The notes beneath the pieces are model-generated. The model saw only the letters and a list, made by a program, of their open reading frames with translations. It searched no databases and was not told the origin of the DNA. A DNA stretch of 32,000 nucleotides, taken from Candidatus Saccharimonadota bacterium (GTDB lineage: Bacteria; Bacteroidota; Bacteroidia; Cytophagales; Amoebophilaceae). The position numbers and the translations under genes are program-made. How positions within the stretch are numbered: the stretch's first letter is position 1; every line of letters begins with the position of its first letter. Of the stretch, positions 2,168 through 31,735 are shown one piece after another. The stretch spans positions 570,001-602,000 of the forward strand of contig NZ_CP022339.1 in the NCBI RefSeq assembly GCF_003351905.1. Reading direction: 5' to 3'.

Positions 2168-3067
2168 ATGAAAGGCTATTTATTTCCTGGGCAAGGCAGT
2201 CAATACATAGGCATGGGCAGGTCGCTCTATCCACACAGTAGGCAAGCACGGCAAATGTTTGAAACAGCTGACCGAATAGTAGGTTTTGATCTGACGCGCA
2301 TGATGTTGGAAGGTACACAGGAAGCTTTAAAGACCACTACGGTGGCACAGCCTGCTGTTTTTTTGCATGCCGTTGCGACTGCTTTTTTAAGTAATACCTT
2401 TCGTCCAGCAGCTGTGGCAGGCCATTCCTTGGGTGAAATAGCTGCCTTGGTCGCTATTGAAGTCATGTCATTTGAAGAAGGGCTCCATTTGGTATCAGTC
2501 CGCTCTAAAGCGATGCAAAAAGCGTGTCAGCTTTGCCCTGGTACCATGGCTGCTGTACTGGGTATGCAAGATGAGGTGGTGGAAGCCATCTGTGCAGAGA
2601 TTACAAAGGAAGTAGTTGTACCGGCTAATTACAATTGCCCAGGGCAATTGGTGATTTCCGGTAGCCAGGCAGGTGTCGCATTGGCTACAGAAGCTTTAAT
2701 CAAGGCGGGTGCGCGGAAAGTCATACCCCTACAAGTAGAGGGAGGGTTTCATTCTCCGCTGATGGCGCATGCCCAGGAAAGTGTGGCTGCAGCACTCTCA
2801 TCTATTCCTTTTGCTAAAGGGATTTGCCCCATTTATCAGAATGTGACCGGACGCCCTGTGCATGATCCCGCAGTCATTAAAAACAACCTCCTCCAACAGT
2901 TGGTAGCACCTATTTATTGGACCAAAACCATTCACCATATGATGGAAGATGGGATTACGGCATATATAGAATGTGGGCCAGGAACGGTTTTACAAGGGTT
3001 AGTTCGAAAAATCGCCCCTGCGTCTATGTACGTAACCCGCCATCTACTTGAATCACCTGTCCTGTAA
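2168..3067 (+). CDS. fabD: Malonyl-CoA:ACP transacylase
   Basis: FPGQGSQYIGMG N-terminal motif, GHSLGE active-site nucleophile elbow, and a later GGFHSPLM motif. The 299-aa length is typical. Confidence 0.92.
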   Translation: MKGYLFPGQGSQYIGMGRSLYPHSRQARQMFETADRIVGFDLTRMMLEGTQEALKTTTVAQPAVFLHAVATAFLSNTFRPAAVAGHSLGEIAALVAIEVMSFEEGLHLVSVRSKAMQKACQLCPGTMAAVLGMQDEVVEAICAEITKEVVVPANYNCPGQLVISGSQAGVALATEALIKAGARKVIPLQVEGGFHSPLMAHAQESVAAALSSIPFAKGICPIYQNVTGRPVHDPAVIKNNLLQQLVAPIYWTKTIHHMMEDGITAYIECGPGTVLQGLVRKIAPASMYVTRHLLESPVL

Positions 3068-4263: not shown

Positions 4264-7200
4264 TTAAGACTTTACCATTGTTATATTTAATGCCCTTTCA
4301 GCATGTAATTGCAGTTCATCAGTTATATCAACCAGTTGTAGCTGCATAGCCAATGGTAGATAAAAGTCTTGAATTAATCTTATTTTCTCTAGCTGCTTTT
4401 CGATGGCGTGACCAGCAATCGTTCTTGCATTATGTAACACATCTGCTAGCCTAATCAGTATCGCATCTTGTTTTGTATGAGCTATGATTTGTTCGATATA
4501 GGTAGCATAATCCTCTTTTTGGTTGGGTAATTCTTTTTCTAAGCGTGCTGCCGCCCATACCGTCTCTGTAATAGCAGGGCCAAATAGCGTCGTTAAGCCT
4601 GCTTCTGTAAAGGGTGTATTTTGTACCACATCATGGACTAAACCTGCAATAATTACACTGGTGTCTTCCGTTATCGTCAGTAAAATGGAGGCTACGGCCA
4701 TGGGATGTAAGTAAAAAAGTTCACCTGTTTTTCTTCTTTGCGTGGTATAATAGATTTTAATTAATTGTAGTGCATCCATTACTGCATCTACCTTAAGTCC
4801 TTTCTTCTGCTTAACCTTTTCTAGAAAATCAGCTTCTGCTTGTATACTTATTGGGTCCAATACCGTCGTTTGTGTATAGACAACAGGTGAAAGCGTAGCA
4901 AATGCCTTCGTAATTTCTTGCACGTTGACAGGTATTACGTATAAATGGGTGATTTCTGATGCAGAACAGAATCGCTCATAGTACCCGTAATGTGCATGTA
5001 CAATATGTTGATTTTCTGAATCTATTTTTTCTTCATACGCATCTAAGATTTGAATATCTGCCATTTCTGCCACCTTATAAATGGGGGCTATGGCAGGCAA
5101 TTGTGTGGCAGTGGTGATGCAAAAGCTGATTGCATTGATTTTTTGTAACTTACCTTGTAACAGTGTGAGTCGATAACCTAACTGTGTATCATCTATATAT
5201 ATATAGATATCCTTTCTTTGATCGCTATGTAGAGATTCATGTGTGCTACAGGCGTATAAACTACTGATGATTAGATTTTTAATGCTTTCTATTGCACACT
5301 GTATATAGAGGTGTTTGGTGTTGATCATTACATAGGGCGTCTCATATATATTGCTGATTGTTATTGTATCAAAACATTCGGCTAATAGTTGATCAATGCT
5401 CATCCAATTCGTAACTAAATGGAGGTTATATTTTAAATGTTGAAAGATGCTGTTAAAATATTTTTTTAACCTAAGTGTTTGATCTGCATAGGTAAGGAGT
5501 CGTTCCTCTGGTTGATCCAATCGCATGAGTTGGTGGTTCAATTGGGAGATGATCCAACTGCTTTCATAAGCCAGTGCTTCTACTTGTTGTTTATTAAAAA
5601 ATTGCCTGGCATTTTGCTCTTCTTTTTCACTAGTTAATGTTTGTATGATTGATAAGCGCTTACCTAAGGCATGCGTATGGTATAAAAAACCGCCCACCAA
5701 AATGAAGAACATAAGTAGGGTGTAGGCAATATGCAGATTCAGGTCTAAAGGGTAATCGATCAATGCAACGGTGCCGTCCATATAGTGGCGCAAGGTCCAC
5801 ACTACTATAGTACTCATGATGCAGCCAATGAGTAGCACGATCAATGGGGTAATAAAAATAGATAAGAGCAGGTTGAGTATACAAATGGTGGTATATAAGT
5901 AGGTGAATTTACTAAGCATAGCCATGCCCGTACCTACTAAAAAAAGAAAATAGACATGACTGAATGGCCATATTACTGACGCTATTTTTCGGATATAGCG
6001 TTGGGGCGAAATGAAGGGGTAAATGAAAAAAAATGTGGCCACAAAGAGGCTGGGTAAAAGCATAAAGACTTCTAGTCTGGTATGCCATATGGGATGACTG
6101 GTAAAAGTATACAAGGAACCATAACCTGTTAGAAGGATATAAAAACCAAACAGTATATAGGGTAGGTGATGCTTGGGTAAGGATAGGTAATCCCCAAGAT
6201 TAAATGGCCTAATCAAGGCATGTTTAGACAATCGCTTCCATAACGGTGGCGGTTTAACTACCGGATCTTGGGCCAACCTATTGGTGCAGTGCGGTGGGTT
6301 TGTACTTCGTTTACCCTTGAAAAACTGGATCACTAATATGCTAAGTAGGTTCACCATCATAGCTGGGAGTAGACTACACATACCTGGGTTAGCTATACAG
6401 CAGGACCAGGTTATAGTCGTTAGACCACCTGCTAGCATACCTGCTAAAACCGCGTGGGGATGTAATGCAATGCCGATTAATGAGAGTAATAAGGGTAGGC
6501 TTACCATGGTTTTAAACAAAATAATAGCCATTGCTATCAGTTGTTCTTGTGTGTATAAGGCAATAAGCGTGGCCATCATGCTTACTATTGCCTGATACAG
6601 GATCGGCTTTTTTACCCATTTGAATAGATCTGGCAGGTCGTTGGTTATTAAACGTGTGGCGGCGTGTAAATTTGCACCTGCTGTAGACAGCGTCAATGCG
6701 GCGGCACCTATCATAAACAACCCTTTTAACCCTAGATAAGCCTCAAAAGAAGTCATGACCAATGGCATTAATTTGCCTGCGTTTTTTTGTGCCAACAGCG
6801 CCACCCATAGTAAAAGCAAGTTGATGCTTAATGACAAGAAACCTGCACTATTAAAAGTCCGTTTTACTTGCGTAGCATTTTCAGCAGCTAAAATGGGTGC
6901 TACCTGAGCAGGGTAGAAAGCAGGTAGGACAAAAGCCATACCATACACCATATGATTCAGTGGAACCGCATCACGCAAACGATCCCAGCCATCTTTAATG
7001 GCTAAAGTAAAATGCGCTTGATCCCCATAGGGGTGGGTTACCATGCTTTTCCATAAAATCCAAGCGATGAGGGGGAGCAATATGCCAAAGGTCGCACAGC
7101 GTGCTACACGTACCAATGTTGGCGGGTGTATCTGGTTGGGTCCAACAGGCAACATGATCAAGAGTGCCGCGATCAGCAGGCTATAATGTGGTTGCATGGC

Positions 7201-7632
7201 AAAGTACCAACCTATAGCCACGGAAAGTAGCTTACACTGCATAGCAGCTGCTGCAGCGCTATGTAAGATACCAGATAGGGCGACCATTTTTCGAATAGGG
7301 TTGCCATAGAGCCGGCCCATTATTTCTGCTACTGATCCAGTATTAAAAAAAAGATGCAACCGATGGGCCAGCAGGTTGCCTATTATAAAATAGCTGAGCA
7401 TGCTGCCTGCCCAATATAATAAGCCATCTATATGCAACGGATTACACAACACCTCTCCTCCATAGGTTATCGCTAAGATGGCTGTTATAGTATGCGCTGC
7501 TGTAAAGTGCGTATATGGGTGGGAGGAATGTTTGGTAGCACGGATGCTAACGAATAGGTAGGCTAATAAAAAAAGAAGAAAAATAATACTGTCTAAGTCC
7601 ATTACCGGTCCTGTAATTATTGTGCTGAACAA
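4264..7632 (-). CDS. Giant polytopic protein: degenerate SSS-transporter-like domain + second TM block + histidine-kinase-like module + RelA/SpoT-type HD domain
   Basis: The ORF is 1122 aa. The N-terminal multi-TM region is paralogous to the 14889-18491 and 18788-20218 proteins (SVAEIMGRLYGNPIRKMVALSG vs SIAQTMGHVYGRYARIVTALVG). The mid region has an H-box-like ISQLNHQLMRL and a CA-like tail IVHAHYGYYE...LYVIPVNV. The C-terminus reads GELFYLHPMAVASIL...AGLVHDVVQNT...RLADVLHNARTI, matching (p)ppGpp-hydrolase HD motifs. Confidence 0.75.
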   Translation of the reverse strand: MFSTIITGPVMDLDSIIFLLFLLAYLFVSIRATKHSSHPYTHFTAAHTITAILAITYGGEVLCNPLHIDGLLYWAGSMLSYFIIGNLLAHRLHLFFNTGSVAEIMGRLYGNPIRKMVALSGILHSAAAAAMQCKLLSVAIGWYFAMQPHYSLLIAALLIMLPVGPNQIHPPTLVRVARCATFGILLPLIAWILWKSMVTHPYGDQAHFTLAIKDGWDRLRDAVPLNHMVYGMAFVLPAFYPAQVAPILAAENATQVKRTFNSAGFLSLSINLLLLWVALLAQKNAGKLMPLVMTSFEAYLGLKGLFMIGAAALTLSTAGANLHAATRLITNDLPDLFKWVKKPILYQAIVSMMATLIALYTQEQLIAMAIILFKTMVSLPLLLSLIGIALHPHAVLAGMLAGGLTTITWSCCIANPGMCSLLPAMMVNLLSILVIQFFKGKRSTNPPHCTNRLAQDPVVKPPPLWKRLSKHALIRPFNLGDYLSLPKHHLPYILFGFYILLTGYGSLYTFTSHPIWHTRLEVFMLLPSLFVATFFFIYPFISPQRYIRKIASVIWPFSHVYFLFLVGTGMAMLSKFTYLYTTICILNLLLSIFITPLIVLLIGCIMSTIVVWTLRHYMDGTVALIDYPLDLNLHIAYTLLMFFILVGGFLYHTHALGKRLSIIQTLTSEKEEQNARQFFNKQQVEALAYESSWIISQLNHQLMRLDQPEERLLTYADQTLRLKKYFNSIFQHLKYNLHLVTNWMSIDQLLAECFDTITISNIYETPYVMINTKHLYIQCAIESIKNLIISSLYACSTHESLHSDQRKDIYIYIDDTQLGYRLTLLQGKLQKINAISFCITTATQLPAIAPIYKVAEMADIQILDAYEEKIDSENQHIVHAHYGYYERFCSASEITHLYVIPVNVQEITKAFATLSPVVYTQTTVLDPISIQAEADFLEKVKQKKGLKVDAVMDALQLIKIYYTTQRRKTGELFYLHPMAVASILLTITEDTSVIIAGLVHDVVQNTPFTEAGLTTLFGPAITETVWAAARLEKELPNQKEDYATYIEQIIAHTKQDAILIRLADVLHNARTIAGHAIEKQLEKIRLIQDFYLPLAMQLQLVDITDELQLHAERALNITMVKS

Positions 7633-7757: not shown

Positions 7758-8162
7758 TTAGTATAGTGCCTGAGATAGCAAGGCGCTAAGGTGTTGCAAC
7801 GACCTAATAACAGCCTTATTTAAAATAGGATAGTGGATCTCTTCCTCTTTTCCAGTATACACATATCCTATTAAAAAGGCAAACCCGGTAGGCGCTAAAA
7901 CATCATCCAATAGATATTTATTGATGCGATAGGCTTCTCTAAGCAAGCGTTTTACTTTATTACGTTGTACAGCAGAACGAAGGTGTCGCTTAGAAACAGC
8001 AAAAAGAACTTGATTACATCTAAATTGTTCTTGCTTTTTTTGCAGGTAAAAGACGCTACAGAGATGTAACCTAAGCCTGCGCCCCTCCTGAAAAAGCATT
8101 TTTATATGCTTTCGATTGGTTAGTCTATGGCACTTGGGCAGGTTATTTTTCCCCATAACCAA
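7758..8162 (-). CDS. rnpA: Ribonuclease P protein component
   Basis: FAVSKRHLRSAVQRNKVKRLLREAYR is the RnpA RNR-type motif. The gene lies 18 nt downstream of rpmH in the classic rpmH-rnpA arrangement. Confidence 0.85.
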   Translation of the reverse strand: MVMGKNNLPKCHRLTNRKHIKMLFQEGRRLRLHLCSVFYLQKKQEQFRCNQVLFAVSKRHLRSAVQRNKVKRLLREAYRINKYLLDDVLAPTGFAFLIGYVYTGKEEEIHYPILNKAVIRSLQHLSALLSQALY

Positions 8163-11397: not shown

Positions 11398-12098
11398 CTA
11401 TGCAAGTTTTTTAGTCATTTTGTACTCGTTTTTGATACTTTTGACGAAGCTTCTTTTTTGTTGTATAAGCTTATGCGCCAGCTCTAGGAGCTTCCTCATA
11501 CATGCTACGATAGCCACTTTTTTAGGCTTATATTTACCTACTAATCTATCATAGCATTCTTTTAAATATAGGAACCACTTTTTCCCTGCTAATACAGCCA
11601 TATACAGTGCATCTCGTGGTATTTTCCTTCCTCCCCTAATAAATCTTTTTCCCTGTTTTTTCCCACTATCAGCCGCATATGGTGCTATACCTACTAAAGC
11701 TGATAGTTGATTACTACTGTAGCTTCTATCACCTAATTCAGGTAAAAAACTGACTAATTTAGTGGCTAAACATTTCCCGATTCCTGGAATGGTTTCTAGT
11801 ATATTAGCCTTTTCGTCTAGATCCTTATCAGTAGTTATGGTTTTATTTAACGCTTTATCAATAATTTTTATTTCTTTTTCTAAAAAATCGATATGCCTTT
11901 CTATGCTTTCTTTATCTATATTAGTCTGGCTATGGTGTAACCGTTTCTTTTCATTGCTTAATGTAGCTACCAGCTCTTCTCTTCTTTGTTGTTGCCTTTT
12001 AAGCCGATCTGTTGTAATATAATAGCTGTAATTAGCTTTCAATCCCCTTTCCTGTCCATAGCGAGCTAGTTTAAAAGGTAGAGTAGAGCACTGGCGCG
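11398..12098 (-). CDS. IS110-family transposase, 3' exon (downstream of group II intron)
   Basis: The C-terminal block IPGIGKCLATKL...LVGIAPYAADSGKKQGKRFIRGGRKIPRDALYMAVLAG...KPKKVAIVACMRKLLE is Transposase_20-like. The frame stays open upstream of the track TTG start back to the intron 3' end (ARQCSTLPFKLARYGQERGLKANY). Confidence 0.75.
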
Positions 12099-12249: not shown

Positions 12250-13548
12250 TTACGTCCATCTGTATCGCACCCGATAAGCTCCTACATTGACTAATTTGTA
12301 CACTTTGTGGAGCTTCTCGTCGGGGAGTTCCTTATACCCGTTCTTCCTACTCCCTTTCTTTTTCATGATAAATCTTCTCAGACGCCTGTTTGCATGCCCT
12401 TGTACTTTCCTAAATCTCCTAGAACTGGCCGTGTGACGGTAATACTCCGTCCACCCCAGTAAGGATGCGTTTAAGTCTTTAACAATAGTTTCAACACTTT
12501 CGTGCAACCGGTTCCGATAGGTCAATTGCGTGACTTTCTTAATAATCCGCTTGATTGCATCAGGTGTAGGATACATATGGGTAACGGGTTTCTGATATCT
12601 TGGCGAGTATCCCCTTTTAAAGGCATACCCTAAGAAATTGAAACCTTCTTCGGCCGTGGTCATTCGACTCTTTTCTTCATTGATCGAAAGGCCCAAGCGT
12701 TGCAGATACCCACATAAAATACCCAAAATCTTCTCTACCGGTTTATTCGACACTATCACGAGATCGTCCGCATAGCGGACAATCTGTGCATTCCACCCAT
12801 TCCTTTCGGTCATCCGCTTGACCCATACTGTGTCTAGCAGATTCAGGTATATATTAGAAAGTAAGGGCGAAATGGGGGACCCTTGAGGGGATCCTTGTCG
12901 AGTAGCAACTTCTTCGCCTTTAAGGACTCCTGAGCGAAGCCAGGCTTGTATTAACTTTAGAACATACCTATCACTGATTCGCTTTTGAATGACTTTCATA
13001 AGCTTATCGTGTGGGATTGAGTCAAAGTATCGCTTCAAATCAATATCTAAAACTTGGGTGAGCCCGTAATTAAGCCATTTATATATTGATAGACTTGCAT
13101 GGACTGCGGATCGTTTAGGTCGAAACCCAAATGAGCATTCTTGGAAGTCTGCTTCAAAAATTGGCTCTATAACAAGACGGGTTGCAGTTTGTACTAAGCG
13201 GTCCTTAATCGTGGGCACTCCCAAGATTCTTATTCCTCCTTTCGGTTTGGGTATTTCCACGCGCTTTGTCTTATTGCTTCGGTAGCTTCCTGATTCCAGT
13301 TCTTTTTGAACTTGTCCAAGAAACGCTTCTTCCCCTTGTTCTTTGATTTGTTCTATTGTTATTCCATCTATGCCTGGTGCCCCGTGATTTGCACAAACCT
13401 GTTTCCATGAACAGACCAGTACGTCCAATCTATATATTTTGTCATGAAGGGTGTAGAAGCTGCGTTTAGGATTAGACTTAGCAGATCGATAAAGTTCTCG
13501 CTGCAGTTCTCGGACGCTTTGTGCCATGTGGTTACCTTGCGGAATCAT
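12250..13548 (-). CDS. Group II intron-encoded reverse transcriptase/maturase (no obvious En domain)
   Basis: APGIDGITIE (RT0/1), RRVEIPKPKGGIRILGVPTIKDRLVQ (RT2), FGFRPKRSAVHA (RT3), VLDIDLKRYFDSIPH (RT4), VRYADDLVIV (RT5 YADD), then FLGY and GW..YYR of the X/maturase domain. The ORF is 432 aa. Confidence 0.92.
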   Translation of the reverse strand: MIPQGNHMAQSVRELQRELYRSAKSNPKRSFYTLHDKIYRLDVLVCSWKQVCANHGAPGIDGITIEQIKEQGEEAFLGQVQKELESGSYRSNKTKRVEIPKPKGGIRILGVPTIKDRLVQTATRLVIEPIFEADFQECSFGFRPKRSAVHASLSIYKWLNYGLTQVLDIDLKRYFDSIPHDKLMKVIQKRISDRYVLKLIQAWLRSGVLKGEEVATRQGSPQGSPISPLLSNIYLNLLDTVWVKRMTERNGWNAQIVRYADDLVIVSNKPVEKILGILCGYLQRLGLSINEEKSRMTTAEEGFNFLGYAFKRGYSPRYQKPVTHMYPTPDAIKRIIKKVTQLTYRNRLHESVETIVKDLNASLLGWTEYYRHTASSRRFRKVQGHANRRLRRFIMKKKGSRKNGYKELPDEKLHKVYKLVNVGAYRVRYRWT

Positions 13549-14888: not shown

Positions 14889-17800
14889 TTACTTGTTTTT
14901 GTTAACTTTTCCTTTTTTTATGTTTACTGTATCCTTATCAATATCAATCTTTAGCGCCTCTTTAGCTGCATGTTCTAATGCAGTGCCTATCTCTGGACCT
15001 AAGTAAGTATGGGCTAACTTCACATCTATGTCTAAGGTTTCTTGCGCCATATGGTGCACCTCTGTTGGATGGATATAACTTGCCGCCTGGTGTAGGTCAT
15101 AGAGCCGCTCGGCTAGCTTAATAAAGAGTACAGAAAGCTGTATATGCTCTTCCTTAATCGCTTCTTTCAATCGATTTTGCACATAAAGCAAGGAAGGGTG
15201 GTCTAAGTCTTGGCGTTTGTCTATACTTATTACATTCAATACAAAGGCATAAACCCCTAAGTTATAATGTTCCTTGACATAAGAAAGTGGTAGGCAGGTA
15301 TGGCGCACCAGTTCATAGAGCAAAGCAGCATAAATTACTTTAGGGGAGTGAAAGACCCATTCTACTATTAACGTGGTAATCCCTACCGCACGTACATAAA
15401 ACAATTGACCCGAGGCATGCCGTTTAAAGCCAAAATGTTTCCGTAGTAATAAAAGCAAACCTGAAATCGTACCTAGGTCAATAGGATCGGATCGATGAGA
15501 AGACTGGCAGATATAGTCATGGAACTGCATTAAGGCCATCATGGAATCAGCTTGCTCTTTAGGGGTAACAGGGGTTTCTGAGGTTAAGCAATCTAAAGGT
15601 AGCTTAGCCGTCATCTTACTCAGCATATCCGTCACATCATTAGGCAGTACCAGTAGCATAGTGGGTTGCTGCTTGTCATCGCATATTTCCAAATGGCCAT
15701 AGTGAGCCCCAACAATACTGGATATGGTTTCTTGTTGGAGGTCTATAGATGGTGGCACTGCTTGTTTCCCTGGATCGTCTATAGCATCTATCCCATCATC
15801 ATAGATACCCTGCACTTTAGGCAATGCCTCAGGGGAAGTAGTAGCTTGACTGAATACTAGGGCAGTCGCTTGAAAAAGCATATATACAGGACAGCTGCTG
15901 TCAATAGGGTCAGCTTGCTTAAACTGCAACGTGGTGCCATGCAGTTGTACCTTTACAATGGGTACAGTATTATCCTCTAGCTTACCAATACGTAAAACAG
16001 CTTGTACCAGCAAATAGACGATTTGGTTGATATCGCATACTATATGCGGGCATGGACCCCCATTAGGATGCATTATCTTTTCTACCAGCAGTCTAGGTGG
16101 ATCAATCACCTCTTGGGATAATGCCAACTCTACCTTACGCATCAACTGATCGAAGGTAATTTGAGCGGGTTGTAGTAGGGCATGCTTTTTAGCTTTTGCT
16201 CTCCTATTAAAATAGGCCACCCAATCATAAAGCTTATTGATAATACTTTGAAAATCTTGCTTATAAAGTGGTACGTTGCTATCTAAAAAAGAGATGGATT
16301 CCTCAATTTTCCCTATTACTTGCGTTAAAATGGCGCCATAGCCTTTGGCTTGACTCATCGTAGTGGTGGGCACCATGGCTGAATCGTAAAGAGAAGCTTT
16401 GAGTTTGCGATCCTTTGCAATCTTTTCTTGATTTTTTAGGTAAAGAATTTGAGCAATATAGCGATCTTGTTTGATTTTAAAGAAAATAATAATAGCGAAT
16501 AGGAGTAGTAGACTCACTATACATAGCGGTAATAAAGAAGATAACAGCGGAAAGCAGGGACCAGTAGCAATAGGATAAATGGATATGAGTAAGGTGGTTG
16601 TTGCCACTCCTATTCCTAGATAAAGGGGTAATCCCCATAAGATGACACCACAATGGGCTAAAGACAAAGAAGCCGAAAAAATCGGTTCTGTTAGATACCA
16701 CCAGGTACCAAGCAAATTCAAAGGAAGATAAACGGCTAATCCTACTAGCCAACATAGACCAATAAACCAACTGGGAATATCCCTTATCCTTTGGAAGATA
16801 TCATAGAGAAATGGGTAGCCTAAATAACAAGCCGCTCCAAATAGTTGCAGTATAAGCCAGCAGACATGATGCGCAATAGGCGCTATAAAATAAGCCAGTA
16901 AACTAGTCACGGCTATATAAATGCCTACACATATGATCATAGTATGGTTGGGTATCAGGTTAGCCAAAGTGATTTTTCTATTGGCCCAACCATTTTTAAT
17001 CGCTTCTTTTCGTTCCGCCTGCTTGCGTGCATGCGCTTGTTGCATTTGTTTAAAATCGGGGTCTGGCCCTACCCAACCAGCCTCTTTTGGCTGTTTGAAT
17101 AAATAATGGGCCGCTAGCATAGCTAAGCCATTGGCTAACATGGAAGGGAAGGCGCCATTTATTCCCATCTCTGGGTCAAGTGGCTCAATCCATTTGTTCC
17201 AAGCTAAAATAGTTAGTGCACCTGTAGCCATACCGATTAAAGCAGTACGAGTGGTGCCCCGAAAACCGAAAATAGCCAATATAAAGGGCGCTGTTATAAC
17301 AGGGATAGCAGAATCAAGAACCCAATATGTTAATTTTAACAGATCTTGACAATAAAAAGCTAGCATCATAGCTAATAAGCCCAACACTAGCGTGGTCCAT
17401 CTAGCTATTTTAAGCTGATGCGCATCATCAATTTGTTTTTCCTTGTGTATACTTTGCAATATATCATAGCTAATCATAATAGAACAAGCATTTAAGCAAG
17501 AGTCAGCTGTAGACATCGCCATAGCGAGTAAACTAACGGCCAAAAATCCTTTAAAAAAAGGGGACATATGAGTCATAATGTACCCCCAAACCTCTTCTTT
17601 AGACAAGTGTGGTGCACCTACAAAAACAAATAGGCCAATTAGAATAATAAAAGAAGCTATAATAAGATTAAAAACAGTAGCATATGAAAAAACCTTTTGG
17701 GCCTGAATGGTACCAGAAGACATGTATACCCGCTGCATAAGTTGGGGTTGGACTATATAGGATACTAAGACAGCCAATATGAGGGAAAACAAAGCTATTA

Positions 17801-18491
17801 ACTTAGTATCAAAATGGAATAGGGTACTAAACTGAAATTTAGCTTGGTTGTGCAGTATAGGAATGATGGTTGATACTGGTTTACCTGCTTTTAGAAATAT
17901 AAACCAAGTCAAAAGAGGAATAATAATGGAAAAGGTTAGAAACTGTAGTATATCTGTAAAGGTAACGGCACGGACCCCCCCAAATGTTGAATAGAAAACA
18001 AGGAATAAGCTGGCGAAGATAGGTACTAAATAGGGGTTATCTACGTGCACACACATAGTAATGGATCGAGACATTACAGTAATCTGCATGGTAATTATAA
18101 TGATACAACGACAAGTACCAACCAAAGCCGTCACGATTCTTGCATATCTGCCATAGACATGACCCATCGTCTGTGCGATAGAGAAGTGTTGCATAAATGG
18201 ACCCATACGTAAGGCTAACTTACCAATAGTCCATAAACCAAAACAATCTAAAAATACAAGAACTATCCACCATAAGCCATATTCATAGACGCACTCTACG
18301 TCACACATTAATGTGCAGCCAGCATATAAAGTGGCCAATACCGTAGCAACTAAAGTAGCGGTAGCAAACTGTTTATTCCCTACTGCATATTCTCGAAAAG
18401 TGGTTTTTTTTCTACTAAAGTAAATGCCTACAACCAAGGTTAGCAATAAAAAAATGGCCACTATAAATAGGGAGATGTTTAAACAGAGCAT
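14889..18491 (-). CDS. Giant polytopic protein: SSS (sodium:solute symporter)-like domain + second TM block + degenerate histidine-kinase-like module + degenerate RelA/SpoT-type HD domain
   Basis: The ORF is 1200 aa. It carries the SSS hallmark FGGVRAVTFTDILQF and about 13 TM segments in the first 480 aa or so, then 6-7 further TM segments and a coiled-coil. A CA-like region follows (IVCDINQIVYLLVQAVLRIG ... IVGAHYGHLEI...TMLLVLP). The C-terminus, SGQLFYVRAVG...AALLYELVRHT...IKLAERLYDLHQ, aligns to the HD_4 motifs with HP, HD, ED and N replaced. Confidence 0.75.
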   Translation of the reverse strand: MLCLNISLFIVAIFLLLTLVVGIYFSRKKTTFREYAVGNKQFATATLVATVLATLYAGCTLMCDVECVYEYGLWWIVLVFLDCFGLWTIGKLALRMGPFMQHFSIAQTMGHVYGRYARIVTALVGTCRCIIIITMQITVMSRSITMCVHVDNPYLVPIFASLFLVFYSTFGGVRAVTFTDILQFLTFSIIIPLLTWFIFLKAGKPVSTIIPILHNQAKFQFSTLFHFDTKLIALFSLILAVLVSYIVQPQLMQRVYMSSGTIQAQKVFSYATVFNLIIASFIILIGLFVFVGAPHLSKEEVWGYIMTHMSPFFKGFLAVSLLAMAMSTADSCLNACSIMISYDILQSIHKEKQIDDAHQLKIARWTTLVLGLLAMMLAFYCQDLLKLTYWVLDSAIPVITAPFILAIFGFRGTTRTALIGMATGALTILAWNKWIEPLDPEMGINGAFPSMLANGLAMLAAHYLFKQPKEAGWVGPDPDFKQMQQAHARKQAERKEAIKNGWANRKITLANLIPNHTMIICVGIYIAVTSLLAYFIAPIAHHVCWLILQLFGAACYLGYPFLYDIFQRIRDIPSWFIGLCWLVGLAVYLPLNLLGTWWYLTEPIFSASLSLAHCGVILWGLPLYLGIGVATTTLLISIYPIATGPCFPLLSSLLPLCIVSLLLLFAIIIFFKIKQDRYIAQILYLKNQEKIAKDRKLKASLYDSAMVPTTTMSQAKGYGAILTQVIGKIEESISFLDSNVPLYKQDFQSIINKLYDWVAYFNRRAKAKKHALLQPAQITFDQLMRKVELALSQEVIDPPRLLVEKIMHPNGGPCPHIVCDINQIVYLLVQAVLRIGKLEDNTVPIVKVQLHGTTLQFKQADPIDSSCPVYMLFQATALVFSQATTSPEALPKVQGIYDDGIDAIDDPGKQAVPPSIDLQQETISSIVGAHYGHLEICDDKQQPTMLLVLPNDVTDMLSKMTAKLPLDCLTSETPVTPKEQADSMMALMQFHDYICQSSHRSDPIDLGTISGLLLLLRKHFGFKRHASGQLFYVRAVGITTLIVEWVFHSPKVIYAALLYELVRHTCLPLSYVKEHYNLGVYAFVLNVISIDKRQDLDHPSLLYVQNRLKEAIKEEHIQLSVLFIKLAERLYDLHQAASYIHPTEVHHMAQETLDIDVKLAHTYLGPEIGTALEHAAKEALKIDIDKDTVNIKKGKVNKNK

Positions 18492-18787: not shown

Positions 18788-20218
18788 TTATAGATAGTTT
18801 GGTGATTTGGCACAACTTAACTTGTATTTTCCTACTATTTTAAGTAGATAGTGGGCGGTTATCATAGTCAAGCCATTGGCTACCATAGCAATAAAAGAGC
18901 CGTCTACCCCTGTTGATGGTTCAACCCATTTGTTCCAAGCTAAAATAGTGAGTACACCTGATGCCATACCGATTAAAGCCGTATGGGATGTGCCTCGAAA
19001 GCCAAAAACAGCTAAGATAAATGGGGCAACGGTAATAGGTAGATAAAGCCCAAGATTTAATTTGAGCAAATCCAACAAATTGGTATAGTAAAAGGTTAAT
19101 ACCATAGCAAATAGCCCTATAAAAATGGACGCAATTCTTGCTAACTCGAGCTGATAAGGATAGGTTTTTGTACTACGTATAGATGCCAGTATATCATGAC
19201 TCACTGCAATAGCGCCTGAGTGTAAACAGGAGTCAGCAGTAGACATAGACATAGCTAGTAAACTAACAGAAAGAAACCCTTTAAGCACAGGTGGAATGTC
19301 CGTCATGATATAGTCCCAAACCTTGACTACTGAAACCTCTGGTGTACCTACAAAAATAAGTAATCCAATCAAGCATATAACCATATTGATGCATATCCCA
19401 AAAAAACCAGCATACCGGAAAACATTCCTAGCCTGTGTGGGGCCAGAAGACATATACACCCTATGCACAATAGGCGCGTCTATATAAGATGCAAGGATAG
19501 ATAAAGCCAGCGCAACCATGGCCACTAGATTCATATCGTAATGGAATATGGTACTGAGTTGAAATGTATCGTGTTCCTGTAAAAGTGGAAAAATTTCTAA
19601 AAATGGTTTGCCCAACTTCATAAATATAAACCAAGAAAAAAAAGGTAGAATAACAGCAAAAGTCATAAATTGTACTACATCGGTAAATACAACTGTACGA
19701 ATACCTCCAAAAGAGGAATAGAAAATCAGGGCTAAAGTAGAACAGACCGCAATGAACTGAGGATCAACTGTATGTATGCATATGCGAATCGATGACGCCA
19801 TTACATGCACTTGCATCGCAACCATTGTAACGGAAGAACCGATACTGCAAAGCGCCACAATAACCCTGGGGCACTTGCCATAGACGCTACCTATCGTTTC
19901 TGCCATAGAAAGATTTTGCATAAATGACCCCATACGTAGTGCCAACCCACTCACCACCCATAAGCCTAAGTCGCCTAAAATAACTATAATCATCCAATAA
20001 AGCCCAAGTGTATGAATCTGTTCTACATTACGGGCCAACCCACTTCCACTATAAGCAGTAGCCAATATGGTGGCTACCAAGGTAGCGGTAGCAAATTGTT
20101 TGTTCCCTATCGCATATTCTCGAAAGGTGGTTTTTTTTCTACTAAAGTGAATACCTACACCCAAGGTCAGTAATAAAAAAGCGGACAGTATACATACCGA
20201 GACATCAAAAGAGATCAT
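18788..20218 (-). CDS. SSS-like membrane protein, truncated tandem paralog of the 14889-18491 N-terminal domain
   Basis: The 476-aa ORF is collinear with residues 1 to about 470 of the 1200-aa protein (FSRKKTTFREYAIGNKQFATATLVAT, FGGIRTVVFTDVVQF, LIGMASGVLTILAWNKWVEP). It ends where the paralog continues. Confidence 0.75.
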   Translation of the reverse strand: MISFDVSVCILSAFLLLTLGVGIHFSRKKTTFREYAIGNKQFATATLVATILATAYSGSGLARNVEQIHTLGLYWMIIVILGDLGLWVVSGLALRMGSFMQNLSMAETIGSVYGKCPRVIVALCSIGSSVTMVAMQVHVMASSIRICIHTVDPQFIAVCSTLALIFYSSFGGIRTVVFTDVVQFMTFAVILPFFSWFIFMKLGKPFLEIFPLLQEHDTFQLSTIFHYDMNLVAMVALALSILASYIDAPIVHRVYMSSGPTQARNVFRYAGFFGICINMVICLIGLLIFVGTPEVSVVKVWDYIMTDIPPVLKGFLSVSLLAMSMSTADSCLHSGAIAVSHDILASIRSTKTYPYQLELARIASIFIGLFAMVLTFYYTNLLDLLKLNLGLYLPITVAPFILAVFGFRGTSHTALIGMASGVLTILAWNKWVEPSTGVDGSFIAMVANGLTMITAHYLLKIVGKYKLSCAKSPNYL

Positions 20219-27897: not shown

Positions 27898-28443
27898 AGG
27901 TGGTCTATAGGGGCTGATGTCTCAACAGGTATCAGGGAAAAAATAATACGATATGCTAATTTGTTAGCTATAAGTTTATAAAACTTTTACTGGGTACAAA
28001 ATTAGCGCATAAAAAATAAAAAGAAGGTTAATGGGTCAACTATTTTACTAATATATAGACACTATGTGTATTTTTTGACTTTCATAGTCAATTATATAGT
28101 TTTTTATTATCTTCTATTTGCTTATATCTTTTTGAGCAAGTAGTATTACCGTTGACTTGTGAAGATGTTCCGTTTATATGGAAAGATATAACCTTAAGCA
28201 ATATACATAGACCACTCTTAAGTAAGTATTTTGATGTTTGAGCAGGGGTGTTTGGAATTGTATTTGATTTTGCTTACTATTCAAAATCGGTTTAATAGAA
28301 TGTATTGGTTCCATACGTCTAGTTTTTTCCTTATCTAGGGCTCAAGCAGATGGCGCAATAGGCCTATTGATGAGGGTATGTACATTTTGATGCAATACTG
28401 TTTAAGTGGTGATAAGCACCATAGGTTTAACCATCTTAATATT

Positions 28444-29307
28444 ATGAAAAAGTATATGCAATATAGCGTAATCCTGCTTATCGGGCTATTAGGCCTACAG
28501 ACCTTGTCTGCTTGTGTACATACAAGAGCAGCAGTAGGTTGTAGGGGCAGTGTATGCACAGAGCAGGTACTAGACTTGGACATGGAGCGCAGCGGAGATA
28601 GCAGCCAGGTAAAAATTAAAAAACCAAACACTACAGCTTATATGATGCTAGGGTGTCTGTTAGGATGTATAGTAACGGGTTGCTTGATGCTACCGGTTTT
28701 TCATAGTTATTTTGATTATTACGTAGGTTCATCCAATACATTTCAGTTCAATAGAAGCAATCATTGTACTCATGCAACCACCCCTTCACAATTCATATTA
28801 GACGTAACCACTATGTCCAGCATGGTTAACATGACTACGGAAAAGGAACGATTCGTTATAGATGCGATTGGTACGTCAAAATGGAACGCAGTACCTGCAC
28901 GCCCTTTAGATGACCAGGTTATGGATGATCTTATTAGTGAGTTTTCAATAGAAAAGATAGCAGAGTGGCTTGCGAAAGGCTTAGATATAAACGCACCAGA
29001 CGAGAACTTGGGATACACGTTATTGATGCATGCCGTATGGTATAATAGTCGACATATTGTTCAATGCTTAATAGAGAAAGGAGCGGATGTGAATGCACAA
29101 GGTAAGGATGGAGCCACGAGTCTCATGATAGCAGTCAAGCAAGATGATGCGCCTATGGTTTCGTTTTTAATAGAACATGGAGCAGACCCATGTATAGCAG
29201 ATCACCAAGGTAACACAGCGCGGTCCTTAGCCCAAGCTATTGCTAAACATACCCAGTCTAAGACTATAATAGTAATGTTGGATCGAGCACAGCCATGTGT
29301 AGCGTAA
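28444..29307 (+). CDS. Ankyrin-repeat protein with lipoprotein-type signal peptide
   Basis: The start is moved to the ATG at 28444. MKKYMQYSVILLIGLLGLQTLSAC has an L-S-A-C lipobox-like end. A second hydrophobic segment follows. The C-terminus has about 3 ANK repeats (GYTLLMHAVWYNSRHIVQCLIEKGADVNAQ, GKDGATSLMIAVKQDDAPMVSFLIEHGADPCIA, DHQGNTARSLA). Confidence 0.8.
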   Translation: MKKYMQYSVILLIGLLGLQTLSACVHTRAAVGCRGSVCTEQVLDLDMERSGDSSQVKIKKPNTTAYMMLGCLLGCIVTGCLMLPVFHSYFDYYVGSSNTFQFNRSNHCTHATTPSQFILDVTTMSSMVNMTTEKERFVIDAIGTSKWNAVPARPLDDQVMDDLISEFSIEKIAEWLAKGLDINAPDENLGYTLLMHAVWYNSRHIVQCLIEKGADVNAQGKDGATSLMIAVKQDDAPMVSFLIEHGADPCIADHQGNTARSLAQAIAKHTQSKTIIVMLDRAQPCVA

Positions 29308-29318
29308 GATGCATGGCC

Positions 29319-30851
29319 TTATTGCATGTTGGTTGCACTTGACCTGCAAGTTGGGCAATCTACCTTACCTATTAGGTGGTGGTATTTTTTTGCAAGCATA
29401 CGGGCTGCTGCAATCCAAGTGAGGCAAATTAAAAAAAACAGGACCATTAAAAATGGTGCCAGTTGATTTGGCTCGGCAGCTGAAAAGATAGTATAACAGA
29501 TGACTTGTACAACCGCCCCTGCAGACTTCCCTATTTTTCCCCCTAATATATCCACCGCTGCTTTTCCTTTTGTGCTCATCTCTTGGTCTAAAGGAATATA
29601 GGCCATCTCTTTAGTGACATCAAAAAAACAATATTTCGTTCCCTTTGCCAATACATTTTGCAGGCCGCCAATCACTACAATAGCTGTTAAAGTGGATATA
29701 CCCATGATCGTCTTTGATACAAGGTGGTAATCCACTGCAATAATCAGCAGGAAAAAAGCACTACCTACTATAAGGGTGGTAACAGGTGTGATCAGTGCTG
29801 CCCCTAGCCAGTTTAGTTTCCGAATCACTACATGGCCAAAACAAGCACAAGACAATGTGCAAATGCCCGTCCAGAATAATACCCTACCTTGGTAGGTAAT
29901 AAAATGGGTAGGATCTTGCTGGTATAGCTGACAGGTTTCATAAAACCAGAGGCCCTCTATTAAATGCACAACCATAGAGTAAGCAATCATCAATATACAA
30001 ATTAATGAAAGGTATTTAGACCTAGCAATCATTTTAAAACTTTTATATAACCCCAGGTGTAGTCTAGTGGTATGCCTGCCTTGTATCCTTTGGCCGCAGA
30101 TGATATATTGTTCGATATACTTATGTAAAAGCAGCATGCAGAGGCATAGCGTGGCAATAACAATCATGAGTGTGGCTATTTTTGAGGCTGTTGCCACTGT
30201 ATACCTACCTATGAAACGCAATAAAAAGTGATCAGCACGCGAAAAGTAGACCATGATACTGCCAGAGATAAGCAGGTTGGCTTGTCCAATCAAGTTGAAA
30301 AAGAAGTAAAAGCGACCCGCTTCTTCTGTTGTCGTTATTTTGTTAGCCAACTGCCAATACAACAAGGTAAAGACAATCATAGGCCAAAGTTCACCTAACA
30401 TATAGAAGAGTATTAAGGTCCATTTACCCCACATGATAAAAAACCATTTCAGATAGGGGTAAAGCCTAATGTAGGCATCCACCTTACAAGGATCAGGATG
30501 CAAGAGCCCCTGGTAAGGGAATAAAAAAAAGCCGAATAAAAGAAAAAAAAAGAGAAAGAAGACGATAATGCCTCTAAAAATCTTTTCTGTGGTTACCCTA
30601 TTACATAAGACCGTATAGACCACTACAAATAAAATTCCTGCGGGCATTTCAACAAATAGCTTAATAAAGCTCAATACTTCTGCCCCTATTAAGGTGACTA
30701 CTAGACCATCTTTTATGCCACGGATTAAATTTTGATTCAGTAAGATAAGAAACATCAAGATAGCCATAGAAAAAAATTTTTGCAGTGCGTGTCCCTTAAT
30801 AGGCCACTGCATAGGATGCCATTTTTTTAGTAAGGCTGTTACATGTTTCAT
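29319..30851 (-). CDS. tlc: ATP/ADP (nucleotide) translocase, Tlc/NTT family
   Basis: The ORF is 510 aa with 12 TM segments. The N-terminal region KFFSMAILMFLILLNQNLIRGIKDGLVVTLIGAEVLSFIKLFVEMPAGILFVVVY follows the Rickettsia/Chlamydia Tlc signature (F.ILFNY.ILR..KD.LVVT..GAEVI.F.K). Confidence 0.9.
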   Translation of the reverse strand: MKHVTALLKKWHPMQWPIKGHALQKFFSMAILMFLILLNQNLIRGIKDGLVVTLIGAEVLSFIKLFVEMPAGILFVVVYTVLCNRVTTEKIFRGIIVFFLFFFLLFGFFLFPYQGLLHPDPCKVDAYIRLYPYLKWFFIMWGKWTLILFYMLGELWPMIVFTLLYWQLANKITTTEEAGRFYFFFNLIGQANLLISGSIMVYFSRADHFLLRFIGRYTVATASKIATLMIVIATLCLCMLLLHKYIEQYIICGQRIQGRHTTRLHLGLYKSFKMIARSKYLSLICILMIAYSMVVHLIEGLWFYETCQLYQQDPTHFITYQGRVLFWTGICTLSCACFGHVVIRKLNWLGAALITPVTTLIVGSAFFLLIIAVDYHLVSKTIMGISTLTAIVVIGGLQNVLAKGTKYCFFDVTKEMAYIPLDQEMSTKGKAAVDILGGKIGKSAGAVVQVICYTIFSAAEPNQLAPFLMVLFFLICLTWIAAARMLAKKYHHLIGKVDCPTCRSSATNMQ

Positions 30852-30976
30852 AAAGTAAGTTTAAAAATTTCTTAAGGGTTACAATTGGTCCATGGTGTCA
30901 TTCTTACATTAACACCATGTCTTGAACAGTTTAAGTTACTTAGCGCAGTACAAACCGAGTAGGTATATCTTGCCCT

Positions 30977-31735
30977 TTAAGCTTTTCCCAAGAAAAGCAT
31001 GACTAGGCTATGGGCAACAGAGTAGGGAACAATTTGCAAGATGCGCATGGTTAATCCATTAAAGATGGCAAGAAACTTCTTTTCTACTGTAATGTTATGT
31101 TTAAGTCGTCCTATCCAAGTCATAGGCACCTCTGAGCCACAATTTTGTGTGGCGATTAGATCAAATGGCATCGTTAAGGCAGATACAGCGATACCCAATA
31201 CCGTACTAACCATCATATTAATCCACACCCCACTGATATCCTTTGTAAATTCATATGCCAATATAGAAGCGGAGCCACTCAGTATATTCCTTAAAAAGAT
31301 CGGCGTTACAATATCACTCATCCTTTCTTTTCGTTTCATTAAAGCCCCTTTATTAGCAGCAATTTCTTTTGTTTCGCTATATATGGTTACGGCTGTTTCT
31401 ACCATTCCTGCTAAGAAGCACTCCCAGATAACCAGTAACGCAAAATTGCTTATCGCATAATAATCAGTAGAACAAAGGAAAAGCCACTGAGAAACTCCAA
31501 AGGCCAAAGCCGCTATAAACTGTCGAAGTGCATAAATATGTGCGCCGGAAAAAAATAATTTAAAATTTTTAGTACGTATGCACCTGGTCACAATAGAGGC
31601 ATAAGATTCGCCGGTTTCTTGGTAGACTACTTTTACAAACTGAGCAGGTGCCACTAAGTAGGCTACGACCATACAAGCGATACCATGTGCAAGTGGATCA
31701 AAAAAAAAGCGGTATAGCAGTGTGTTGTATTCCAT
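30977..31735 (-). CDS. Short 6-TM protein with mitochondrial-carrier-family-like tripartite motifs
   Basis: The ORF is 252 aa with six hydrophobic helices in three pairs. After the odd helices come PAQFVKVVYQ (aa 30), YSETKEIAAN (aa 119) and PFDLIATQ (aa 190), resembling the P.[DE]..[KR]...Q carrier signature. Each is followed by F.G....LRQ/LR-like segments (LFFSGAHIYALRQ, IFNGLTMRILQIVPY). Confidence 0.45.
   Translation of the reverse strand: MEYNTLLYRFFFDPLAHGIACMVVAYLVAPAQFVKVVYQETGESYASIVTRCIRTKNFKLFFSGAHIYALRQFIAALAFGVSQWLFLCSTDYYAISNFALLVIWECFLAGMVETAVTIYSETKEIAANKGALMKRKERMSDIVTPIFLRNILSGSASILAYEFTKDISGVWINMMVSTVLGIAVSALTMPFDLIATQNCGSEVPMTWIGRLKHNITVEKKFLAIFNGLTMRILQIVPYSVAHSLVMLFLGKA

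Follow-up and report, generated by a model that had tools for sequence, protein, structure and literature searches.

A Cardinium membrane protein with Gln-Asn in place of the Glu-Asp diad of RelA/SpoT-type hydrolases is a candidate ligand-binding pseudoenzyme

The Glu-Asp (ED) diad of (p)ppGpp hydrolases has been altered by mutation in several enzymes. In SpoT-Ab of Acinetobacter baumannii, the E82Q protein has no hydrolase activity, the D83N protein performs poorly with Mg2+ and is activated, as a partial rescue, only by millimolar Mn2+, and in the proposed model a first metal (M1) is bound by the 2H2D motif and a second (M2) by the ED diad (Zhou, Manisa and Wang, JBC 2024, PMC11554896). Mutation of the diad Glu kills several RSH (RelA/SpoT homolog) hydrolases (PMC11554896), and MESH1 E65A and D66K are both inactive, the latter having served to trap NADPH with the introduced Lys in a salt bridge to phosphate (bioRxiv 10.1101/325266). 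In RelSeq with bound pppGpp, the guanine is held by R44, K45, S46, N148 and T151, and the 3'-alpha-phosphate is contacted by D78 and Mn2+ and faced by N148 (PMC13299517). The pseudo-hydrolase domain of RelA, from which the whole HDxxED motif has been lost, has a regulatory role without catalysis (PMC8012599). Here, we compare with these systems a natural protein in which the diad reads Gln-Asn (QN), encoded on the minus strand of a 32,000-nucleotide stretch of DNA (the window; contig NZ_CP022339.1, positions 570,001 to 602,000 of the forward strand).

The window comes from Candidatus Cardinium (Bacteroidota, Amoebophilaceae), an insect/mite symbiont, and Cardinium and Amoebophilus are symbionts that manipulate the reproduction of their hosts. 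An open reading frame (ORF) is present at 4264–7632 on the minus strand with its stop at 4264, and the TTG at 7632 is merely the first possible start of this 1122-residue frame. The true start is probably the ATG at 7602 (MDLDS...), which is preferred because it coincides with the start of a 92%-identical ortholog (P0001); the resulting gene (4264–7602), here called A-type, encodes a protein of 1112 residues, numbered 11–1122 in the frame of the longer ORF, and has 12 further Cardinium orthologs. An exact-sequence look-up returned no identical public record for the A-type protein of the window. The closest match of the ORF is an 'HD domain-containing protein' of Cardinium sp. TP (92% identity), and further orthologs belong to the Cardinium of Nabis, Tipula, Encarsia (C. 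hertigii) and others.

The A-type protein is a member of an SSS/pseudo-kinase/HD family of the Amoebophilaceae, and AlphaFold2 (AF2) models compared by Foldseek with the PDB resolve three modules: a diverged SSS/SLC5 fold with extra transmembrane (TM) helices, a histidine-kinase-like core of the DHp and CA type, and a RelA/SpoT-type HD domain. The full-length model has a pLDDT of 68, and the model of the cytoplasmic half (aa 634–1122) a pLDDT of 80.8 and a pTM of 0.70. Because QN stands at the ED columns of a Rel/SpoT hydrolase fold in which the metal and guanine residues are kept, we consider that the A-type protein is most likely neither junk nor a functioning hydrolase but a membrane-anchored, ligand-binding pseudoenzyme, and give this a somewhat better than even chance. 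Its two components differ in strength: the published mutants indicate with moderate-to-high confidence that canonical hydrolysis has been lost, and the retained residues indicate with moderate confidence that ligand binding persists.

An HD domain with an altered diad

The HD domain (aa 946–1122; 4267–4797, minus strand) is the only part of the A-type protein with a Pfam match. HD_4 (PF13328) is matched over aa 954–1098 with an E-value of 1.4e-16 (61 bits against a cut-off of 27.2), TIGR00691 (NCBIfam spoT_relA) scores 92 bits over its N-terminal 158 positions, and phmmer against Rel, RelA and SpoT chains of the PDB gives E-values of ~1e-18, so that by homology scores the assignment lies far beyond chance. 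The AF2 model of the domain (pLDDT ~81) superposes on RelSeq (1vj7_B) with a root-mean-square deviation (rmsd) of 1.7 Å over 188 columns, and across the Rel/SpoT hydrolases aa 927–1120 align over ~190 columns at an rmsd of 1.7–2.7 Å and 24–30% identity, with 8acu, 6s2t, 7qpr and structures bound to ppGpp or pppGpp among the matches. No RelA_SpoT synthetase domain was found in the protein by the Pfam scan, which separates it from RelA-type pseudo-hydrolases.

All of the strings quoted in an initial annotation made from the DNA letters were recovered in the translation of the ORF, including GELFYLHPMAVASIL (aa 970–984), LVHDVV (aa 998–1003), HDVVQNT (aa 1000–1006; nt 4615–4635), RLADVLHNART (aa 1061–1071) and ISQLNHQLMRL (aa 695–705). 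That annotation proposed that the metal ligands of the HD domain had been kept while ED had changed to QN, and both parts are borne out. In HMMER alignments to RelA, Rel and SpoT chains, Q1004 and N1005 (codons CAA-AAT, 4618–4623, minus strand) fall exactly under the ED of HD(T/V)(V/I)EDT, at the positions of E81-D82 in RelSeq, E82-D83 in SpoT-Ab and E65-D66 in MESH1, and the caveat that QN might occupy non-catalytic columns therefore does not apply. The diad of active (p)ppGpp hydrolases is thus absent. The 2H2D site is complete on the same strand, with H976 (RelSeq H53; nt 4705–4707), H1000 and D1001 (H77 and D78; nt 4630–4635) and D1064 (D144; nt 4441–4443), where equivalences were derived with the offset of 1vj7 and nucleotides from a residue-to-codon map. 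Likewise, the base and phosphate contacts of the RelSeq-pppGpp complex have kept equivalents in R967 (R44), K968 (K45), N1068 (N148) and T1071 (T151), which counts in favor of binding. By analogy with the engineered proteins, the M1 and base-binding site of the A-type domain would be intact and its M2 or water site disabled, as in a substrate-trapping mutant.

Conservation was assessed amongst 13 Cardinium A-type proteins sharing 48–92% identity, including that of a nematode strain (P0041). QN is conserved in full only at its second position: the D82 column is Asn in 13/13 sequences, while the E81 column is Gln in ten, Lys in two and Arg in one. Invariant positions include H53, H77, D78, D144, R44, N148, T151, H147, G47, E48 and P54 (RelSeq numbering), in an HD core where 57 of 147 columns are invariant and the minimum pairwise identity is 54%. 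Seven of seven metal ligands and contacts R44, N148 and T151 are invariant (hypergeometric P = 0.001), as are 14 of the 16 motif positions (P = 3e-5). The retention of these residues together with D82N down to 48% identity indicates that QN is an old and maintained state and not a recent lesion. A pseudogene remnant in the strain of Oedothorax gibbosus reads HDIVENT, with Glu and not Gln at the first diad position.

The makeup of the diad columns bears on whether the domain, its 2H2D site being intact, could be a residual or retargeted hydrolase, cleaving (p)ppGpp slowly at high Mn2+ only or acting on a 3'- or 2'-monophosphate for which no second metal is needed. SpoT-Ab D83N regains substantial activity with millimolar Mn2+ (PMC11554896), but E82Q alone abolishes the activity of that enzyme and the natural protein carries both changes. 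Similarly, weak metal binding by the invariant Asn at D82 is conceivable and the Lys or Arg at E81 in deep Cardinium branches could take the place of a cation, yet Gln, Lys and Arg are chemically so dissimilar that a precise catalytic role for this position is unlikely. Even with the precedent of MESH1-type RSH domains, which act on NADPH and CoA, we regard such a hydrolase as rather unlikely.

In a neighbor-joining tree the A-type QN group is monophyletic, and its sisters are a protein from an Amoebophilaceae metagenome-assembled genome (MAG) with the pattern A.YD.QH.I.N (P0045) and a second protein with the pattern Y.HG.KH.H.K (P0040), both of which lack the ED diad and the metal ligands. 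As the sisters are also without ED, its loss predates the Cardinium radiation, and as they have lost the metal ligands too, retention in Cardinium is selective and not a matter of inertia; on this tree, only Cardinium has kept the rest of the site. This pattern speaks to another possibility, that the domain is a structural relic which binds no nucleotide and in which the His and Asp residues hold a structural metal or stabilize the domain for dimerization or folding. All three A-type modules have lost family hallmarks (see below), and the RelA pseudo-HD offers a precedent for an intramolecular regulatory module without catalysis (PMC8012599), but that domain has lost its whole HDxxED motif, whereas in the A-type proteins 61% of HD columns vary but the metal- and guanine-binding residues have been selectively retained, and the sister lineages, free of the constraint, have lost both sets. 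A purely structural role is accordingly given a low probability, below that of an altered hydrolase.

Degenerate kinase-like and membrane modules

The module preceding the HD domain is homologous to a kinase core, as judged by profile and fold comparisons. It consists of a DHp-like helical hairpin (aa 634–740; 5413–5733, minus strand; AF2 helices 634–703 and 708–737) and a CA-like alpha/beta domain (aa 741–905; 4918–5412, minus strand). An hhalign comparison of the middle region of the family with 17 genuine SSS-histidine kinases spans 244 columns (probability 97.9%, E = 3.6e-13), and Foldseek on the AF2 model identifies the CA-like domain as a real Bergerat-type fold, with aa 634–905 matching the DHp and CA cores of RetS, HK853, CusS, HprS and ZraS.

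The same hhalign result sets the phospho-His (NVNHELR.P) over Y689 of EALAYES (nt 5566–5568, minus strand), a Tyr that is invariant in the A-type clade. The initial annotation had instead read ISQLNHQLMRL as an H-box with a retained His, and this must be discarded: H700 (nt 5533–5535, minus strand), which lies three residues ahead of the turn of the DHp-like hairpin, is His in only 3/13 orthologs, the other ten having N, D, C or Q. In the alignment with the 17 genuine kinases, the CA-like domain has no N box, G1 box (DxGxG) or G2 box (GxGxGL), the Pfam scan returned no HisKA or HATPase_c match in the A-type protein, and an invariant AHYGY motif (aa 880–884) stands where kinases read AHGG. As the phospho-His column is Tyr and the ATP-binding boxes are missing, the middle module cannot be an active kinase; it probably provides a dimeric stalk.

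Toward the N-terminus, a diverged membrane domain (aa 11–445; 6298–7602, minus strand) is predicted to have the LeuT-type SSS/SLC5 fold. Foldseek matches it to CHT1, NIS, SiaT and vSGLT with E-values of 1e-8 to 1e-6 (best CHT1, 9e-9; SGLT1/2 also matched) on a model with a pLDDT of ~68 in this region. The initial annotation described this N-terminus as degenerate and devoid of the GG..TD..Q hallmark, and profile searches agree, with no SSF match at E ≤ 1 in the A-type protein (Pfam PF00474/TIGR00813), unlike the 62.5 bits scored by a paralog in the window (B-type, see below). The missing Pfam match is consistent with the degeneration of two shared family segments, of which FGG(I/V)KxVTFTDxxQ reads VGPNQIHPPTLVRVARC and MSTADS reads LSTAGA in the A-type protein; both are retained in the B-type paralog, in ED-intact relatives and in genuine SSS-kinases. 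A second block of TM helices follows (aa 486–633; 5734–6177, minus strand; AF2 helices 490–618), and the ortholog CAHE_0228 of strain cEper1, with 1118 residues, is listed with 20 TM helices in all (Table S4, PMC3486910).

Paralogs, selection and genomic setting

An exhaustive profile search covered 1.84 billion cluster representatives, and the best 150 matches were examined. An HD domain is present in 106 of these, most of them full-length at ~1100–1200 residues, and the complete canonical H.HD.ED.D.N pattern occurs in 62 of the 106. The named members belong to Amoebophilus, Amoebophilaceae MAGs, Cardinium, one Roseivirga MAG and unclassified Bacteroidota. Among the matches listed from a contig scan was one Amoebophilaceae locus of the SSS/kinase-like/HD family (L002), and the degenerate patterns also matched ordinary Rel/SpoT genes from across the bacteria.

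Within Cardinium, three classes can be told apart. Beside the A-type, the window encodes the B-type paralog (14889–18491, minus strand; 1200 residues), which has a good SSF domain and in which the metal and catalytic residues of the HD domain have all been replaced; its HD pattern R.Y[DE].R[YH].E.D is conserved across strains and its clade is monophyletic. Directly upstream and in tandem with it lies an SSS-only family member of 476 residues (18788–20218, minus strand) that is 53% identical to the B-type N-terminus. In Cardinium sp. TP, a 402-residue truncated B-type fragment comprising the CA-like region and a degenerate HD domain (YELVRRT) is found beside an rve integrase gene (L001, 18690–19898), one of the numerous fragments of the family that have been reported from this genome. 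The third class is ED-intact, with the pattern RK.H.HD.ED.D.N.T and Pfam matches to SSF, HD_4 and HD (P0107, P0203–P0249). It occurs across Cardinium, including Cardinium sp. TP, the closest sequenced strain (P0243), so a substrate for this type of HD domain presumably exists in the cells. A nematode-strain genome (1.19 Mb) has at least 13 ED-intact copies at 63–87% identity, an indication that putatively active membrane-bound alarmone hydrolases have recently multiplied there.

Two further claims of the initial annotation can be set against these data. It held that the two full-length paralogs of the window had decayed differently, and they indeed fall into two separately conserved, monophyletic subfamilies. 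The view that this reflects specialization rather than junk is strengthened by the coexistence of the canonical ED class in the genus and by a ratio of nonsynonymous to synonymous substitution (dN/dS) that resembles those of neighboring genes.

The family has been met before under several names. In public records, the labels 'bifunctional (p)ppGpp synthase/hydrolase RelA/SpoT', 'GTP pyrophosphokinase' and 'High-affinity proline transporter PutP' are attached to family members (P0176, P0090, P0107, P0224); these labels mislead, as a synthetase domain was detected in none of them. Atkinson et al. 2011 (PMC3153485) treated the copies of Amoebophilus as a 'rickSpo[H] expansion' alongside one Rel[HS], Brown et al. 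2018 mention 18 'spoT / sodium glucose cotransporter' homologs for Amoebophilus, with 7, 3 and 2 for three strains of Cardinium, and 12 SSS-family entries, including CAHE_0228, were listed for cEper1 (Penz et al. 2012, PMC3486910). The detailed architecture, the change of ED to QN and the three-way split of paralogs are not described in the literature searched, outside of which most subscription-journal papers fall.

The A-type gene is under purifying selection. Against the Cardinium sp. TP ortholog (Nei-Gojobori; dS 0.17, unsaturated), dN/dS is 0.23 for the whole gene, 0.30 for the SSS-like domain, 0.24 for the second TM block, 0.12 for the DHp-like and 0.17 for the CA-like region and 0.20 for the HD domain, and for seven neighbors in the synteny block the values lie between 0.11 (fabG) and 0.64 (rnpA). 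The whole-gene value is no higher than those of the adjacent fabD, phosphoribosyltransferase and UPF0176 genes, which counts against slow decay, that is, a gene heading toward loss in a reductive genome rich in insertion sequences (IS) whose conservation reflects short divergence time. Gene loss does occur in the family, as illustrated by the pseudogenized A-type copy of the O. gibbosus strain, by 81 SSS/HD fragments reported for the cTPut genome (2025 paper, PMC12039267) and by the truncated B-type fragment beside an integrase gene, but the full-length A-type ORF persists in 13 lineages from several Cardinium clades and from nematode and insect hosts at 48–92% identity. Further, synteny is conserved, with rnpA (7758–8162) immediately upstream on the same minus strand and the order rpmH, rnpA, A-type gene, fabG kept in three other Cardinium genomes. 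Slow decay is the least probable of the explanations considered and appears quite improbable. A seemingly split gene in the strain of Bemisia tabaci was dismissed, the break being a run of N at an assembly gap.

Returning to a ligand-binding pseudoenzyme, its origin and operation can be sketched as follows. The ancestor was a fusion of SSS sensor, kinase-like core and small alarmone hydrolase, of a kind common in the Amoebophilaceae. The A-type group has lost the Glu-Asp diad, without which (p)ppGpp 3'-pyrophosphohydrolysis fails for want of a holder of the second metal and/or the attacking water, but the first metal site (2H2D) is still there, as are the residues holding the guanine base and the 3'-alpha-phosphate. 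The HD domain would bind a divalent metal and a 3'-phosphorylated nucleotide without turnover, with (p)ppGpp as the prime candidate, and may thereby sense a ligand for, or otherwise regulate, the membrane domain and the dimeric kinase-like stalk, while the canonical ED paralog in the same genome would carry out hydrolysis. The more specific proposal of a receptor that sits in the membrane, recognizes (p)ppGpp or a 3'-phosphorylated nucleotide related to it, and was created by a natural trapping-like double mutation (E to Q, D to N) beside a catalytically intact paralog is offered tentatively, as it seems to us less probable than its negation.

Several points weigh against a ligand-binding role. 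The mixture of Gln, Lys and Arg at the E81 column suggests that constraint on this side chain is not tight, the ortholog from the nematode strain has Glu at K45 (K968), and Val or Ala replaces R145 of the ADRLHN motif. As the SSS-like and kinase-like modules are themselves degenerate, what any signal would lead to is obscure. In the O. gibbosus strain (cOegib), the A-type copy is a pseudogene (L082, 6100–7430): it has frameshifts and in-frame stops, its HD domain is interrupted by an AT-rich insertion of ~220 nt, and the LAD..HN motif has been deleted. In at least one host, then, the function can be dispensed with. Additionally, the literature searched gave no answer as to a (p)ppGpp synthetase in Cardinium.

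The surroundings of the gene, which include ankyrin repeats, a TLC ATP/ADP translocase and a protein resembling mitochondrial carriers as well as IS110 fragments and a group II intron reverse transcriptase, fit an intracellular symbiont. A gene cluster of host-interaction type spans 28378–31735 of the window and comprises an ankyrin-repeat protein (plus strand), the TLC ATP/ADP translocase (minus strand) and a eukaryote-type mitochondrial carrier repeat protein (minus strand). An ORF for a group II intron reverse transcriptase/maturase (12250–13548) adjoins fragments of IS110-family transposases (11398–12042 and 439–879), all on the minus strand, and this stretch looks like a strain-specific zone of mobile-element insertion, because other genes fill it in the synteny block of Cardinium sp. 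TP. The convergent fabD (plus strand) and fabG (minus strand) ORFs, as listed, overlap by 44 nt at their 3' ends (3024–3067); the two genes lie apart in Cardinium sp. TP, and the end of fabD or the extent of the fabG ORF in the window may differ from that strain.

Comparison with known systems

Known RSH hydrolase domains are active enzymes or, in RelA, thoroughly degenerate regulatory modules, and the A-type domain is a maintained intermediate state between these, carrying the replacements that enzymologists introduce to kill catalysis. The ED-intact, QN and fully degenerate paralogs form a natural series for probing the role of the ED diad in water activation or second-metal binding, and for probing pseudo-hydrolases as alarmone receptors. 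If the receptor proposal holds, this would be the first natural alarmone sensor derived from an RSH hydrolase, an obligate intracellular symbiont would couple alarmone or nucleotide status to membrane function, and there would be a first functional handle on an uncharacterized SSS/pseudo-kinase/HD family of more than 100 sequence clusters. This sizeable misannotated family also accounts for an appreciable part of the membrane proteome in Cardinium and in Amoebophilus.

In overall layout, the A-type protein resembles the SSS-sensor histidine kinases of the CbrA/CrbS type, with an N-terminal SLC5 fold, an extra TM block and a DHp and CA core, and full-length profile matches link the family to Bacteroidota relatives with HisKA and HATPase_c (such as P0022). 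Unlike those kinases, it has Tyr in place of the phospho-His, no N, G1 or G2 box and an appended HD domain, and no cognate response regulator is evident nearby. RetS-type cores are the best structural matches of its DHp and CA region (Foldseek E ~2e-6), a likeness at the level of fold only (9–12% sequence identity) that does not imply the mechanism of RetS.

The HD domain shares with the small alarmone hydrolases (RelSeq, Rel-Tth, SpoT-Ab, MESH1) the HD_4 fold, the 2H2D site, the R-K-S/T-G-E loop and the (A)D-x-x-H-N-x-x-T motif. It differs in having Q/K/R and N in place of the ED diad and in being the C-terminal module of a polytopic membrane protein of ~1100 residues and not a soluble enzyme of ~180 residues. 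As in the gamma-proteobacterial RelA pseudo-HD (PMC8012599), an RSH HD domain that is here predicted to be inactive is nonetheless conserved; in RelA, however, nothing of the HDxxED motif is left and a synthetase domain is attached, while the A-type protein keeps HD and the other metal ligands and has no synthetase domain. The closest parallels are the engineered SpoT-Ab E82Q and D83N and MESH1 E65A and D66K, in which the same residues were changed, in SpoT-Ab to the same amino acids. Whereas those are single changes made in active enzymes, the A-type changes are natural, combined in one protein and maintained across the genus.

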